DNA of 64,000 nt from an uncultured Hyphomonadaceae bacterium. Lineage in GTDB: Bacteria > Pseudomonadota > Alphaproteobacteria > Caulobacterales > Maricaulaceae. Each line of letters starts with the position of its first letter. The first letter of the stretch is position 1. The position numbers and the translations under genes are program-made. Below, in pieces: positions 2,280-43,391 of the stretch. The stretch spans positions 114,327 through 178,326 of the forward strand of contig CAXATH010000005.1 of NCBI GenBank assembly GCA_963972195.1, written 5' to 3'. The notes below the pieces were generated by a model. It was given only the letters and a program-made list of their open reading frames with translations. It ran no database searches and had not been told where the DNA came from.

Positions 2280-4442
2280 GTGAGTCTTCAACGCCGATTA
2301 TTGGGCACCGCTTTGGCCGCTTTGCCTATTGTATTTTTCCAGACGGTTTCAGTGCAAGCCCAAGAGGCTCCGGAACAAGACGACGAGATTGTGGTCACAG
2401 GTCGCGTCTCAACCTTTGGCGCGACAAAATCCGATATTCCGATATTGGAAACGGCGCGATCCGTCTCGGTTATCGGCGCGGATGAGTTTCTGGAGCGCGG
2501 CTCTCTGACACTCGACGACACGCTGAATTATACGGCAGGGGTCGTCGGAGATACATTTGGCTATTCCACACGCGGTGATTTCCCCCGGGTGCGGGGACTG
2601 GATGTCCCGGAATACCTCGACAATATTCAAGTCCTTTTCGGGTTCTACAACAATGCCCGTTCTGACATTTACACGCTTGAGCAGGTTGAAATCCTAAAGG
2701 GTCCGGCCTCAGTGCTTTACGGGCAAGGCTCTCCGGGCGGTATTTTAAACACCGTCAGTAAAAAGGCCGGATCGGAATATTTAGGCCGCGAAATTGTTTT
2801 GGATTACGGCACGCACAACCGGATGCAGGCCAGCACGGATATTGGAATTGACTTGTCCGGTGACGGCGAATGGACAGCGCGTTTGGTCGGGCTCATCCGC
2901 GAAAGCGACACACAAATTGACTTCGTAAATGATGATGCCATCATTTTTGCGCCGTCCGTAACATTTGAGAATGAAAACACGACTATCACGGCGCTGGTCA
3001 ACTATACCGACCGTTCCAGTGATACCGCAGGTCAATTTCTGCCCCTCTCTGTAACAGGCTGCGCGAGCGATGATGTCACAATTTCCGAGCCGAATATCTG
3101 CGCCTCTGCAACTGGCACGGAAGTCGAACCCTCTCTTTACGTTGGCAGCCCTGAATTTAATAAATACGACACGGAGTCTTTGTCTCTTACCCTCTTCGGC
3201 CAACAACGTCTGAACGATATTTTCTCTGTCGAAGGCACACTGCGTTTTCGGGATAACGAGGCGGATTATAATCAGACATGGGTGTCTTTCCTTGGAACGG
3301 GCGTGCCCCGGACAAGTGCTGACGGCACCGCTCTGGCCAGAACATGGTATCAGTCCGATGCGGGGTCTAATCAATTCGCGGCGGATACGCGGGTTCGCGC
3401 CAAGTTTGATACAGGCATTGCGTCTCATGAAGTCTTGGCCGGAATTAACTATCAGGACGTCGAAACGGAGCAGCTCGGCGCCTCTCTCTACGGACGTCCG
3501 ACGACGTTTAATCTTTACAACCCCGTCTATGATGGTTCCGAAATACCGACCAATGCCGAGTTTGATGCCCTTCGGGCGCTGACCGAAAGCGCCACAGAGA
3601 CAATCGGTTATTACGTGAATGACCAAATCAGCATCGGAAACTTTGTTTTGAATGCCGGCGTGCGGTTTGACGATTTGAAATCCGGAAACGGAACAACCAC
3701 TCAGGATGACAGCGCCACAAGCATCAGCGTTGGCGGTTTGTATAAAACCTCTTTCGGTTTGAACCCTTACGTCAATTATGCGGAGTCATTCCAAGCCACA
3801 GTCGGCGTCGACACAAATACGGGTGAAAACCTTAAGCCCCAAGAGGGCGAACAGATTGAGATCGGCGTGAAATATCATCCGGCCGGGTCACCGACCTATA
3901 TCACCGCGGCCTATTTTGATATTGAACAGTCAAACCTTCCCAATCCGCAAGCGCTGCAAAATGCGGCATCACAGCAGGAAGGTGTCGCCAAAATCAAAGG
4001 ATTCGAAGTCGAAGCCCGAACGGCCATTGGCGATCTGCATCTCGACGGGAGCTTCAGCACATTGGATACGGAAGACCCGAACGGAATTCCAATTTCCAGT
4101 ATTCCCGAAGTGCAGGGATCCGCTTGGGCGACCTGGAAACCGTCCAGCGGTCAGCTCGAAGGATTTCGTCTGGGCGCCGGCGTTCGATATGCCGGAGATA
4201 ATGAGAGCCAAGGGGTTTCCTTCCTTGCGTCCAACAACTTCCAGCCATCTGTCGTGAAAGTAGAGACGGACGGATATACCGTTTTCGACAGTCTCATCGG
4301 TTATTCCTTTGACCAAGTCGACCTGACTTTGAACGCGCGGAATTTATTCGACACGGATTACTACGGGACATGTCTGGCGCGGGGGGATTGTTTCCCGGGT
4401 GAAGGCCGTACCGTCGTCGCGCGGGCCGCCTATCGTTTCTAA
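2280..4442 (+). CDS. TonB-dependent siderophore receptor
   Basis: Signal peptide, TonB box 'EIVVTG', plug motif 'LEQVEILKGPASVLYGQGSPGG', C-terminal 'NARNLFD...YRF'. Start moved from the listed 2265 to GTG 2280, after the GGAG RBS. Confidence 0.93.
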   Translation: MSLQRRLLGTALAALPIVFFQTVSVQAQEAPEQDDEIVVTGRVSTFGATKSDIPILETARSVSVIGADEFLERGSLTLDDTLNYTAGVVGDTFGYSTRGDFPRVRGLDVPEYLDNIQVLFGFYNNARSDIYTLEQVEILKGPASVLYGQGSPGGILNTVSKKAGSEYLGREIVLDYGTHNRMQASTDIGIDLSGDGEWTARLVGLIRESDTQIDFVNDDAIIFAPSVTFENENTTITALVNYTDRSSDTAGQFLPLSVTGCASDDVTISEPNICASATGTEVEPSLYVGSPEFNKYDTESLSLTLFGQQRLNDIFSVEGTLRFRDNEADYNQTWVSFLGTGVPRTSADGTALARTWYQSDAGSNQFAADTRVRAKFDTGIASHEVLAGINYQDVETEQLGASLYGRPTTFNLYNPVYDGSEIPTNAEFDALRALTESATETIGYYVNDQISIGNFVLNAGVRFDDLKSGNGTTTQDDSATSISVGGLYKTSFGLNPYVNYAESFQATVGVDTNTGENLKPQEGEQIEIGVKYHPAGSPTYITAAYFDIEQSNLPNPQALQNAASQQEGVAKIKGFEVEARTAIGDLHLDGSFSTLDTEDPNGIPISSIPEVQGSAWATWKPSSGQLEGFRLGAGVRYAGDNESQGVSFLASNNFQPSVVKVETDGYTVFDSLIGYSFDQVDLTLNARNLFDTDYYGTCLARGDCFPGEGRTVVARAAYRF

Positions 4443-40120: not shown

Positions 40121-40284
40121 TCCCCCGTTTACGGGGTTTGAGCCAAAGCGACATGACATGTCGTGACGCGAATGACCTCGCGAATGCGAGGGGATGGGGG
40201 GAGCATAATACGCCAGCGTCTGTAACGTGAGGCTCCCCCTCCGCCTATGCTTCGCTTTGGCACCTCCCCCGTAAACGGGGGAGG
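40121..40284. repeat. CIR-like palindromic intergenic element (family R2), copy A
   Basis: Ends CCCCCGTTTACGGGG and CCCCCGTAAACGGGGG; its core is homologous to the reverse complement of 44008-44174. Confidence 0.75.
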
Positions 40285-40316
40285 GGAGCGTGGGGAGAGG
40301 GGTGAGGGGGTCTCAA

Positions 40317-41159
40317 TCACTGCCCCGTCGCAACAATCCCGTCAATTTCGTCCCAAAGGGACTGTTCCTTGCCAGCCGCCAACTCCGCCTCGAACCGCTT
40401 CTTGGCAATCCCGTAAAGGTAATCCTTATCCATATCGATGCCGATAAAGCGGCGCCCATGGCGCAGGGCCGCGACGCCGGTTGTCCCGCTGCCGCAGAAC
40501 GGGTCAAGAATAAGGTCGCCTTTATGGGTGGAGGCGAGGACGATACGCTCCAATAGCGCTTCGGGCTTTTGCGTCGGGTGCCGCCCAAAGGATTTTTCGG
40601 ATTTTTTTGTCAGGGGCAGATGCCAGACAGAGCGCATCTGTTTGTCCGGCTTTTTCATTTTATCTTCGGGCCAATCGCCGAACTTCATCGCCTCATAATT
40701 AAAAACATGTTTGTGTTTTTTGGCCGTCCGCGCCCAGACGAGCGTTTCGTGACTCGCCGTGAACATGCGGCAAGACAGGTTGGGCGAGGCGTTCGGCTTG
40801 AACCAGGCAATGTCGTTGAGGACATGCCAGCCCCCTTTTTGCAGCGCATAGCCACATTGGAAAATGGAATGATAGGTGCCGCTAATCCAGATTGTCCCGC
40901 CAGGACGAAGTTTGCGGTGACAGGCCGTAATCCAAGCCGTATGGAAATCAAAATCGGCTTCGGGACCTCGCGACTTATCCCAATCGCCCTTATTGACCGA
41001 CACCATTCTACCACCTTGGCAAGTGAACCCGTCATTGGAGAGATTGTAGGGTGGGTCGGCGAAAATCATATCGACGCTTAGATCGGTGATCTTCTCCAAA
41101 ACGTTGAGGCAATCGCCTTGGAGTAATGTGAAGCGAGGGTTTTCGGCCCCCGCCGCCAT
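40317..41159 (-). CDS. Beta-class N6-adenine DNA methyltransferase, DpnA/M.MboIB-like
   Basis: '[14 protein letters not shown]...[12 protein letters not shown]', 'HPTQKP', '[11 protein letters not shown]'; motif order DPPY before FxGxG. Confidence 0.88.
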
Positions 41160-41244
41160 TAACTAAGTCGTCGGGTCATAAGACCGCATAAATGCGATCT
41201 TTAGTTGTGTTTTGTCAAGTTGAGTTTTTTATTGCTAGGTGGAA

Positions 41245-41346
41245 CCCCTCACCCGACCTTTGGCCACCCTCTCCCCATGGGAGAGGGGAATAGAACGCTC
41301 TCCTTCTCCCGTGGGGAGAAGGTGTCACGAAGTGACGGATGAGGGG
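41245..41346. repeat. CIR-like palindromic repeat between the divergent MTase and nuclease genes
   Basis: CCCCTCACCCG...CCCTCTCCCCATGGGAGAGGG...CCTTCTCCCGTGGGGAGAAGG...CGGATGAGGGG. Confidence 0.75.
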
Positions 41347-41401
41347 CTGGAATTTCACGAATTTGATTGCCCTCTCGACAAATCCAATTATCCCTAAGTT
41401 G

Positions 41402-42178
41402 ATGACAGGGGAGTTTGATTGGGAAATGCGCGAGGATGCGGCCGCCTTTACGAGCGGGTCGCAAAAGGCGCGTGTCTGGACCGAAGGCTGGGTTCTACGC
41501 CAGATGTATTGCCCGTCCTGCGGGGAACGGCCCCTCACGGATTATACTAATAACAAACCCGTCGCCGATTTTTATTGTGGCCTCTGTTCCGAAGATTACG
41601 AATTGAAATCAACCAAGGGGAAATTCGGGAAAAAGATTACCGATGGCGCTTATGCCACCATGATGGCACGCCTCCAGAGTGAAACGGTGCCCAGCCTTAT
41701 GCTCTTGCGATACACGATGGCCGATAAAATGGTGCAAGACCTGTCGGTTATTCCGAAACAGTTTTTCGTTACCGATTTAATTGAACAGCGTAAGCCTCTA
41801 GCGGCCACCGCGCGACGCGCCGGATGGGTCGGCTGCAATATCCTGATAGACAAAGTTCCGAAAGCGGGGCGAATTTCATTGGTCGAAAACCGTGTGCCGC
41901 AACCCAAAGATCGCGTTTTGGACAAATGGGCCAAGACGCGTTTCCTCCGTGGAAAGACTTTGGATAAAAAGGGGTGGGTTCTGGACGTTCTCAATTGTGT
42001 CGAGCATATCGGGCAGACGGATTTTACGCTGGCCGATGTTTATAAATTCGAGAATTATCTGAGCGAGTTGCATCCCGAAAACAACAATGTGAAACCGAAG
42101 ATACGGCAGCAATTGCAAGTGTTGCGGGATGCGGGGATTTTGGAGTTTGTTAGGCGCGGAGAGTATCGCTTATCCTAA
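41402..42178 (+). CDS. DpnI/Dam-replacing-protein family methyl-directed endonuclease
   Basis: 'SQKARVWTEGW...YCPSCG', 'NNKPVADFYC..C.E.YELKS', winged helix 'KIRQQLQVLRD.G..EF..RG.Y'. Start moved out of the repeat to ATG 41402. Confidence 0.88.
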   Translation: MTGEFDWEMREDAAAFTSGSQKARVWTEGWVLRQMYCPSCGERPLTDYTNNKPVADFYCGLCSEDYELKSTKGKFGKKITDGAYATMMARLQSETVPSLMLLRYTMADKMVQDLSVIPKQFFVTDLIEQRKPLAATARRAGWVGCNILIDKVPKAGRISLVENRVPQPKDRVLDKWAKTRFLRGKTLDKKGWVLDVLNCVEHIGQTDFTLADVYKFENYLSELHPENNNVKPKIRQQLQVLRDAGILEFVRRGEYRLS

Positions 42179-42462: not shown

Positions 42463-43038
42463 TCAGAGCAATTGTTCTGGCCCATTTTGCTTTAAATTCT
42501 TTCTGTAATCCCTAATTCTGTATGTTGCGGTAGATTTGCTTACTCCAAATACCTTGGTCGCTTCCGAGGGAGACATGGACGGACAAATTAACTCAAAAGG
42601 CATCAAAAGAGCGGCTGCGAACCGATTTGCTTGTGCTTCGCTTTGACAATATGGCTTATCAGGGTGTTTGCTAAGTAATGCCATAACTGGTGTTTGACCT
42701 GCATGGAGAAATGCATGGCCGAGTTCATGGGCGACTGTGAAGCGATCCCTGAAGAAGCCACTACAAGCCCCCTCGTAAACTGATTTTTTCAAAAAGATGG
42801 TTTTACCGTCAATTGATGTACATCCTTCGTAACCACTGGCCTCATCATTTTCTACGATTTCTAATTGTATGGCGTCAGAGCTATTGTAAAGTATCTGTTC
42901 TAATGTTGCCATTACTGGGAAATATTTAGTACTGTCAAAGCCGTAAGCTTTTCGCATGAGCCATGCATCACGGTCTATGCTTTCCCAAGAACGAGGCTTT
43001 ACTAGAAAATTGTTATGATCGAAATTCATTTCTCGCAA
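42463..43038 (-). CDS. ImmA/IrrE-family metallopeptidase
   Basis: 'RDRFTVAHELGHAFLH' (HExxH), 'EAQANRFAAALLMP'; AT-rich. Confidence 0.88.
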   Translation of the reverse strand: MREMNFDHNNFLVKPRSWESIDRDAWLMRKAYGFDSTKYFPVMATLEQILYNSSDAIQLEIVENDEASGYEGCTSIDGKTIFLKKSVYEGACSGFFRDRFTVAHELGHAFLHAGQTPVMALLSKHPDKPYCQSEAQANRFAAALLMPFELICPSMSPSEATKVFGVSKSTATYRIRDYRKNLKQNGPEQLL

Positions 43039-43391
43039 CCTTTGTATTCGTTTAGGAACAAAGTTTTAAGTTCTTGAAGTTTTGTATCTGAAATTTTTGG
43101 TAACTGACGAGCAAACATTGCTACAGTTTCTTGTTGAATACCCGTCGATGTTGAAATCGAAAATTCATTTCTTGCAAGCGCATACTCTTTTAACAAGTCT
43201 TCAGCGCTTTCTTCAGTAAGCGAATAGGCCTCTAGAATTTTAGAATCAAATCCAGAAGGCGGCTCTTTTCTTCCATGTTCAACATTTGAAATAAATGCGG
43301 TCGAAACGCCGAGTTTCCGACTCATATCTAAAATTCTTTCACCTCTATCGATTCTAAGGTTACGGAGTTCTCTACCAAATCTAGTTATCAT
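43026..43391 (-). CDS. XRE-family HTH regulator
   Basis: 'FGRELRNLR...DMSRKLGVSTAFISNVEHGRK'; overlaps the peptidase start. Confidence 0.88.
   Translation of the reverse strand: MITRFGRELRNLRIDRGERILDMSRKLGVSTAFISNVEHGRKEPPSGFDSKILEAYSLTEESAEDLLKEYALARNEFSISTSTGIQQETVAMFARQLPKISDTKLQELKTLFLNEYKGCEK

Follow-up and report, generated by a model that had tools for sequence, protein, structure and literature searches.

Intact genes for a predicted GATC adenine methyltransferase and a DpnI-type nuclease are maintained side by side in marine Robiginitomaculaceae

How can a bacterium keep, in adjacent genes, a DNA methyltransferase (MTase) predicted to form N6-methyladenine (m6A) in GATC and a nuclease predicted to cut GATC when it carries that very mark? 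The question is raised by a divergent gene pair on contig CAXATH010000005.1 of an uncultured Hyphomonadaceae bacterium, analyzed here within a stretch of 64,000 nucleotides (hereafter, the window). The two open reading frames (ORFs; Table 1), of 280 and, in its longest form, 279 amino acids, match PF01555 and PF06044 with PF17726, respectively, in agreement with the initial annotation, which had described two divergent genes with clear family motifs. Its central proposition, that a GATC m6A writer adjoins a Gm6ATC-dependent cutter and that the combination should be lethal, is supported by homology, gene context, and conserved residues. The GATC MTase and DpnI appear to form a true antagonistic pair, and something must keep the two activities from destroying the chromosome. 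The start of the DpnI-like gene is probably the ATG at 41402, which matches the start of its orthologues in two relatives (G011 and L105), rather than the longest-ORF start at 41339; the gap between the divergent genes is then 242 bp. Here and below, W stands for the window's own genome or sequence, G-numbers for genomes of its family, and L-numbers for the other loci and contigs compared.

On paper, this genome would encode a writer and a writer-dependent cutter for about 11,000 chromosomal sites. GATC sites were earlier noted as common; the window contains 226 of them and the genome as a whole 10,949. Depletion of GATC, sought as a sign of self-conflict, is absent, the observed to expected ratio being 0.84 with a Markov estimate and 0.92 with base composition. 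For GANTC, 6,251 sites are observed where base composition predicts about 11,900, a depletion that is usual in alphaproteobacteria bearing CcrM. The reported lack of a DpnII-type endonuclease and a Dam-like MTase in the window extends to the whole 3.05-Mb genome, where a search with PF02086 found no Dam-like (D12-class) gene and tblastn found no DpnII, DUF6996/7 nuclease, phage Dam, or C protein.

The DpnI-like product matches PF06044 (1e-67) and, in its C-terminal winged helix, PF17726 (3.5e-31). It aligns over nearly its whole length with R.DpnI (PDB 4esj, 274 bits), and PADLOC recognizes it as mREase_II, a type II methyl-directed restriction enzyme (1.7e-95). Published roles of R.DpnI residues (PMC4117772, PMC3424567) were mapped onto the protein alignment. 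The catalytic D53, E64, and K66 and the Cys4 zinc site are all kept in the window's homologue, and so are the base contacts N48, D78, R126, and R135, the methyl pocket formed by L129, R135, W138, and G140, and R231 of the winged helix. Identity with the pneumococcal enzyme at the key residues extends to every MTase-paired homologue in the family, that is, the marine Robiginitomaculaceae, which include Algimonas, Robiginitomaculum, Hellea, and Litorimonas. Altered catalysis or recognition was rejected, since no key residue has changed; by its sequence the window's nuclease is a canonical Gm6ATC-dependent DpnI. DpnI prefers fully methylated over hemimethylated sites and cuts the latter only at high enzyme concentration (PMC3424567).

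The MTase matches PF01555 (N6_N4_Mtase, 1e-60) over residues 29-253 and has the beta-class order of motifs, DPPY before FxGxG, in a single domain with an intact HPTQKP motif. Its best curated matches are CcrM proteins (NCBIfam NF050803, 250 bits against a cut-off of 830; PDB 6pbd, 202 bits), and on these rested our first reading, a CcrM/HinfI-like GANTC enzyme that would pose no paradox. More generally, the MTase might be an unrelated orphan of GANTC or other specificity that merely borders a hot spot, which would fit the highly variable neighbour slot described below. We consider this highly improbable. The NF050803 alignment covers only model positions 5-255 of 350, corresponding to the catalytic domain, and a full-length CcrM of 390 amino acids is encoded elsewhere in the genome, on contig C9 adjoining mutY. 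The window's MTase is closer to M.LlaDCHIB of plasmid pSRQ700 (54.9% identity), its closest annotated relative in the collections searched, than to the genome's own CcrM (40-42%). Its loops equivalent to Loop-2B and Loop-45, among them PNLSCRMFT, match LlaDCHIB and do not conserve the CcrM recognition loops, whose roles are described in PMC6787082. In the MTase tree, the window's enzyme falls outside CcrM, and the enzymes of the family form one supported clade, sister to the DpnII-coupled enzymes.

The neighbours of the MTase relatives point to the same specificity. Three independent homologues with 65% identity (P0104, P0108, and P0120) are translationally coupled to a PF04556 DpnII in two-gene M-DpnII operons, near which no other DNA methylase was found. 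Among 80 metagenome loci surveyed, 48 have a neighbouring nuclease of the DpnII family (22), the MutH/Sau3AI-like family PF02976 (19), or the DUF6996/DUF6997 family (7). Within Robiginitomaculaceae, the same-locus MTase orthologue in G117 is paired with Dam and DpnII, and the orthologue in Robiginitomaculum antarcticum (G025), 82% identical, is the sole candidate methylase partner of a DUF6996/7 type II nuclease, Dam being absent from that genome. Because its partners belong to three unrelated GATC-associated nuclease families, the MTase subfamily represents, with high probability, a duplex GATC m6A methylase, and the enzyme of this strain is predicted to share the GATC specificity. The GANTC reading was rejected on the evidence of the locus polymorphism, the DpnII-coupled homologues, the identity with LlaDCHIB, the recognition loops, and the separate full-length CcrM. 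The initial label "DpnA-like" had the family right, as the LlaDCHIB identity and the nuclease coupling indicate, but it could not be read from motifs alone, the best hidden Markov model and PDB matches being CcrM. A shift to a non-GATC site, which the same annotation had named as an observation that would undo the paradox, is unlikely, as relatives partner three GATC nuclease families and the loops match M.LlaDCHIB.

This survey also assigns the DUF6996/DUF6997 family to GATC systems. PADLOC calls the family REase_II, and in several loci (L110-L112; L084 3815-5089) a DUF6996 + DUF6997 protein is encoded between Dam-like and DpnA-like methylase genes of one operon; the R. antarcticum copy has an added DUF7226 domain. 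The family is very likely a GATC-specific restriction nuclease.

The pair is not a peculiarity of one genome, a point on which the initial annotation had proposed a survey. In 121 species genomes of the family, the short methylase was found in 12 and a DpnI homologue in 17, and in six of the 121 (G000, G045, G115, G104, G015, and G093) the two genes are adjacent, divergent, and intact. Further pairs are present in contigs of metagenome-assembled genomes (L005, L007, and L008) and in the closest relatives, L105 and L107, the MTases of which are 98% and 84% identical to the window's. The mutual exclusion of GATC methylase and DpnI does not hold here, intact neighbours occurring in at least 11 lineages of Robiginitomaculaceae. 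The pair-bearing family genomes contain no DpnII, and no Dam except weak D12-class matches in G093 (three, of 43-102 bits, on its contigs C19, C30, and C14).

Both genes are under purifying selection while paired. Compared with L105, which has the same divergent pair, the MTase shows six amino-acid changes and 26 synonymous-only codons, with a ratio of nonsynonymous to synonymous divergence (dN/dS) of 0.07 at dS 0.16. For DpnI, dN/dS is 0.04 at dS 0.49 against L105 and 0.03 against G011. Since the flanking genes of the window and L105 differ by dS 0.24-0.39, both genes are taken to descend from those of the strains' shared ancestor. Deeper comparisons, in which synonymous sites are saturated, give dN/dS of 0.04-0.2. 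Two supported MTase subclades, with three and five members, are wholly DpnI-paired, and the terminal branches of DpnI-paired MTases are no longer than those of nuclease-coupled members. All 59 near-invariant columns, defined from 54 nuclease-coupled relatives, are matched by 7 of the 11 DpnI-paired MTases; the enzymes of G104 and L008 have one or two singleton deviations, and no context-specific substitutions were found in the DpnI-paired MTases. A lysine-to-arginine change, K193R in GKHPTQKP (codon 193, window 40579-40581), is common to W, L105, L007, and L008, the nuclease-coupled relatives having Lys in 54 of 54 cases; it is a conservative change and a candidate attenuating one.

Hidden inactivation of the MTase is disfavoured by the absence of context-specific substitutions and of long branches and by the seven fully invariant enzymes, and its being a recent relic in the window's lineage was rejected on the comparison of the gene and its flanks with L105. 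The suggestion in the initial annotation that one gene may be inactive fares poorly, given intact motifs and purifying selection on both genes. The MTase is apparently a functional gene, maintained in cells that also maintain DpnI. A search of the literature found no published methylomes of relatives.

The conflict looks different in other bacteria, where 74 DpnI loci outside Robiginitomaculaceae were examined. C-terminally truncated Dam-like genes abut DpnI in four of them (L045, L078, L054, and L083), N-terminal stubs of a beta methylase (residues 1 to about 64, ending at NKGxWDKS) lie directly upstream of DpnI in three (L051, L052, and L063), and N-terminally truncated beta methylases lie downstream of it in two (L054 and L083). 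These scarred loci come from Clostridia, Flavobacteria-like bacteria, Methylotenera, and Saccharibacteria. In Neisseria gonorrhoeae, drg is followed by a beta methylase that is 53% identical to the window's and has an in-frame stop; the NgoAXI locus holds either drg or dam, then the truncated methylase, and only the dam strains have methylated GATC (PMC6789123, PMC4269198). In a soil-metagenome group, an intact methylase is encoded upstream of a DpnI homologue with the replacement E64Q in four of four copies, one of which is frameshifted (L192). In the contigs of this group (L181, L185, L189, L172, and L192) the two genes are on the same strand, the methylase has a C-terminal extension of about 110 amino acids, and the methyl pocket is kept in the three unbroken DpnI copies; the DpnI homologue may be a non-cutting reader of Gm6ATC. 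In L074, from Vampirovibrionales, an intact methylase on a long branch overlaps DpnI in tandem. Visible resolution of the conflict is the rule in the bacteria examined, and the window's family is a clear exception. The "dam-replacing" insertion of DpnI genes is widespread rather than peculiar to Neisseria.

If the conflict ends in this way elsewhere, one partner could be silent in the window despite its intact frame: DpnI might be unexpressed or inhibited on a methylated chromosome, or the MTase might be a recent relic of a replaced DpnII-type system. The methylase with an in-frame stop beside Neisseria drg (PMC6789123), the stubs and truncations flanking DpnI in the seven scarred loci, E64Q in the soil group, and the deletion of the MTase gene in G011 are precedents. 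This is nevertheless very unlikely, because dN/dS is 0.04-0.07 for both genes over a recent, unsaturated divergence between two pair-bearing lineages, deep subclades are entirely paired, all key DpnI residues are kept, and 7 of the 11 paired MTases show no deviation at near-invariant columns.

The position of the pair in the chromosome is shared. The locus adjoins groESL in conserved synteny in those family genomes that were aligned, and DpnI is the commonest occupant of the slot beside the MTase. Other occupants are a Dam-like MTase with DpnII in G117 (PF02086, 3.5e-67; TIGR00571, 293 bits; PF04556, 3e-92), a DUF6996/7 "type II restriction enzyme" of 424 amino acids in R. antarcticum, a DUF6996/7 nuclease gene interrupted by an insertion sequence in G016, and a GmrSD-type nuclease in G098 and G072. 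DpnI is preceded by a helix-turn-helix (HTH) gene of C-protein type, encoding 95-101 amino acids, in G104, G015, G093, and L008, and the same C-DpnI combination occurs in G114 in the absence of the methylase. In G011, which belongs to the same genus as the window and has a 98% identical DpnI, the MTase gene is deleted, and its first codons, 72 bp of its 3' end, and the promoter element described below remain; in G022, DpnI stands alone next to groEL. The groESL-adjacent locus is a defence hot spot with exchangeable nuclease cassettes, like the pneumococcal dpn locus. It differs from the latter in that the beta MTase is not within the exchanged segment and is left behind in cassette swaps. The GmrSD-type protein of 621 amino acids (PF03235 + PF07510; PADLOC HEC-06/Orf5), encoded divergently to the MTase (L113 379-2244 for G098; L114 543-2408 for G072), is a second kind of modification-dependent partner for the same MTase.

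The DNA between the two genes contains one conserved segment, a 30-bp element beside the MTase start (Table 1). Read on the minus strand, it has the form TTGACA-N18-CATTTA, and it contains a GATC. The element is kept in W, L105, L107, G045, G115, and L007 despite saturated synonymous divergence between most of them, and it is retained in G011 although the MTase gene is deleted there; it is likely the MTase promoter. It is homologous to one operator half of the loci with a C gene and survives in loci that lack this gene, including the window. The intergenic DNA of the C-type loci carries a perfect palindrome, TTGTCAATTGACAA, and a second palindrome, GTCAAgtgtaaaTTGAC, given as GTCAA-N7-TTGAC, and a GATC adjoins the start of the C gene. 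The C-like HTH gene (HTH_3, PF01381) precedes DpnI in G104, G015, G093, L008, and G114; in five contigs it encodes 87-101 amino acids and lies directly upstream of DpnI and overlaps it (L091 5879-6184, L092 6129-6416, L093 6046-6330, L094 4946-5209, and L008 about 3708-3986). A C protein controlling a methyl-dependent nuclease would be an unusual arrangement. No C homologue was detected by tblastn in the window or in the whole genome, and the window itself has apparently lost the C gene.

Table 1. Features of the MTase-DpnI locus, in window coordinates
Feature	Coordinates	Strand	Description or basis
MTase gene	40317..41159	-	beta-class N6-adenine DNA MTase, 280 aa, DpnA / M.LlaDCHIB (GATC) type by prediction, without the C-terminal DNA-binding domain (roughly 80 aa) of CcrM
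R.DpnI homologue (type IIM, predicted Gm6ATC-dependent)	41402..42178	+	258 aa; longest ORF from 41339
30-bp element AAATGCGATCTTTAGTTGTGTTTTGTCAAG beside MTase start	41190..41219	.	conservation across relatives; putative promoter
REP-like palindromic repeat in divergent intergenic region	41238..41352	.	fold energy, partial genomic copies
Second G+C-rich palindromic repeat, directly 3' of MTase gene	40225..40320	.	read from sequence; 24-nt core on 4 other contigs
CapH-like HTH gene + CapP-like M78 peptidase gene	43026-43391 + 42463-43038	-	PF13560, PF06114; PADLOC matches

We propose, with a probability of about 50%, that the activities of the MTase and DpnI are conditionally separated, by regulation or, less likely, by substrate preference. 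The proposal is made because both genes are selected while paired, because the genome has about 11,000 GATC sites, and because DpnI needs both strands methylated for efficient cutting. We regard it as the most economical explanation, given that the subfamily protects duplex DNA in M-DpnII operons and that both genes look unimpaired. DpnI would be a standing defence against Dam-methylated invaders. The MTase would be held back from full methylation of the duplex chromosome because its expression is tight or conditional or, alternatively, because its main substrate in vivo is single-stranded DNA, as it is for DpnA. The ancestral control may have been exerted by a C protein through palindromic operators between the genes, of which the window would retain only the conserved GATC-bearing promoter element.

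Several observations weigh against conditional separation. Members of the MTase subfamily that serve as the sole methylase in M-DpnII operons must, by prediction, act on duplex DNA, so that activity on single strands alone is disfavoured. Purifying selection would not persist on an MTase that was permanently silent; the enzyme must therefore act sometimes, and the benefit of this action is left unexplained. Neither the window nor its closest relatives contain a C-protein gene, and no regulator was identified here. Finally, the overlapping tandem MTase and DpnI genes of L074 imply co-expression, although the long MTase branch in that locus may mean decay.

The two enzymes might instead be biochemically compatible, the MTase making no DpnI substrate because its specificity has drifted or because it only hemimethylates its sites; hemimethylation protects from DpnII-type enzymes and yields a poor substrate for DpnI. 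The weak cutting of hemimethylated sites by DpnI (PMC3424567) agrees with this, as do K193R in W, L105, L007, and L008 at an otherwise invariant GKHPTQKP (54/54 K) and the supported branch that separates the family clade from the DpnII-coupled clade. However, the specificity loops are almost the same as in LlaDCHIB and the nuclease-coupled relatives, orthologues from the same clade accompany DpnM and DpnII in G117 or serve as sole methylase beside a DUF6996/7 nuclease in G025, this nuclease family occurs in Dam-R-DpnA operons, and K193R is absent from most DpnI-paired MTases. Moreover, no monomeric methylase with a palindromic target is known to us to leave its sites hemimethylated. We regard biochemical compatibility as unlikely.

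The selection on the MTase would reflect either a role independent of DpnI or a role as the writer arm of a mark-then-cut defence. According to the latter explanation, the MTase marks GATC on invader, possibly also host, DNA only upon infection or DNA entry, and DpnI then cuts; cleavage would occur within the cell where the mark was made, as abortive infection, or in kin cells that receive the marked progeny, following the logic of Streptomyces Pgl. The pair could possibly be an immune module of two genes that first writes and then cuts, in effect a kill switch triggered by methylation, in which a normally restrained MTase is unleashed upon infection or DNA entry. We rate this explanation second, well below conditional separation; of the mechanisms listed in the initial annotation, mark-then-cut thus ranks above shifted specificity and above the silencing of one gene. 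Since the MTase is selected in DpnI-bearing cells, it must be active at some point, and phage defence would be a source of strong selection. The partners of the family MTase are mostly modification-dependent, namely DpnI in 11 lineages and the GmrSD-type nuclease in G098 and G072, with classical nucleases in only three lineages. The divergent layout with shared control DNA, the C-like repressor or activator in deeper lineages, the conserved GATC in the control element, and the location in a defence island with AbiC, TIR, and CapH/CapP-like neighbours also fit. On the other hand, no trigger or sensor was identified, and either gene is dispensable in some lineages (MTase deleted in G011; DpnI alone in G022 and G114). 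A plain hot spot would also be expected to have a variable neighbour slot, and the tandem overlapping genes of L074 suggest co-expression. The known targets of GmrSD enzymes are modified cytosines rather than m6A, which also counts against a mark-then-cut role. If true, write-then-cut would turn unmethylated invader DNA, and perhaps the chromosome of the host as well, into a DpnI substrate, extending the reach of the nuclease from Dam-methylated phages to any phage, and the same MTase would serve the GmrSD-type nucleases of sister species.

Two further elements of the locus appear incidental. The initial annotation had placed a CIR-like repeat (41245-41346) in the shared promoter region. A palindromic low-copy repeat is indeed found there (about 41240-41350; fold energy -31.6 kcal/mol, z = -5.5), of the repetitive extragenic palindromic (REP) kind and with partial copies at about four other loci on four contigs. 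It occurs at the same spot in L105 and G115, but it is not part of the system, since L107, G045, and L007 lack it there, and it is better described as an incidental REP-like insertion than as a conserved promoter component. Two different G+C-rich palindromic REP-like elements bracket the MTase gene (Table 1), and G011 lacks the gene between the corresponding positions.

Downstream of DpnI and convergent to it, the window has overlapping genes (42463-43391, minus strand) for an HTH protein (PF13560; PADLOC CapH, 1.5e-6) and an M78/ImmA-type peptidase (PF06114; PADLOC CapP, 2.9e-18). CapH and CapP are DNA-damage-responsive regulators of cyclic-oligonucleotide-based antiphage signalling systems (CBASS) and other defence operons. 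Here they are probably cargo of a variable slot, because the closest relative, L105, lacks them; they could regulate a neighbour. In relatives, the segment between DpnI and the STAS/groESL flank (L105 2074-2976; L107 1435-2565; L090 4172-5215; L089 6799-7176; L087 6753-7616) carries other genes instead, encoding DUF2971, CAP12/PCTIR TIR, AbiC-like, or HAD-like proteins. The content of this slot differs in almost every relative, which marks a hot spot of defence genes.

The opposition of DpnI-type enzymes and GATC adenine methylases is a textbook case of mutual exclusion, exemplified by pneumococcal DpnI/DpnII and Neisseria dam/drg, and its scars are seen in several phyla as truncated Dam genes, methylase stubs, a nonsense methylase, and E64Q in DpnI. 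Because such scars occur elsewhere, a marine family that keeps both partners intact, adjacent, and selected represents a natural experiment. Perhaps the writer is separated from the writer-dependent nuclease by a control layer that has yet to be described. Alternatively, the writer deliberately makes DNA cuttable, and if this is true, restriction-based immunity would have a new logic.

Among known systems, the DpnI (dpnC-dpnD) and DpnII (dpnM-dpnA-dpnB) systems of Streptococcus pneumoniae resemble the locus in being alternative GATC cassettes at one locus in related strains (PMC3812788). The window's nuclease is similar to R.DpnI (274 bits), and its methylase corresponds to the DpnA-type component. 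However, the pneumococcal cassettes are mutually exclusive, and DpnI strains have no GATC methylase, whereas the window's pair is intact and adjacent. The window also has no dpnD-like gene, and some of its relatives add a C-protein gene. With the LlaDCHI (LlaII) system of Lactococcus lactis plasmid pSRQ700 the window shares the beta-class layout and recognition loops of M.LlaDCHIB, but that system is a three-gene operon of a Dam-like methylase, a beta methylase, and a DpnII-type nuclease; in the window, DpnI is encoded divergently and a Dam-like partner is lacking. Neisseria drg (NgoAXI / NmeBII) likewise places a DpnI-family nuclease beside a beta methylase, at a recombination hot spot that holds dam or drg (PMC4269198, PMC6789123). 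There the methylase is stopped in frame and drg strains lack GATC methylation, whereas the window's methylase is intact and under selection.

The C-type relatives (G104, G015, G093, and L008) are similar to PvuII-type C-controlled restriction-modification systems, with the arrangement M <- palindromic operators -> C-R and an HTH_3 protein of about 95 amino acids. They differ in that C would here control a methyl-dependent nuclease, for which the classical scheme "methylate first, restrict later" would be suicidal; the window itself is without a C gene. Finally, in the Streptomyces Pgl system, phage DNA is believed to be marked by an adenine methylase of the host and then attacked in later infections. 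The Pgl proteins (PglW, X, Y, and Z) are unrelated to those of the window and include no DpnI-type nuclease; the likeness to Pgl is a functional analogy, and it concerns the mark-then-cut explanation only.

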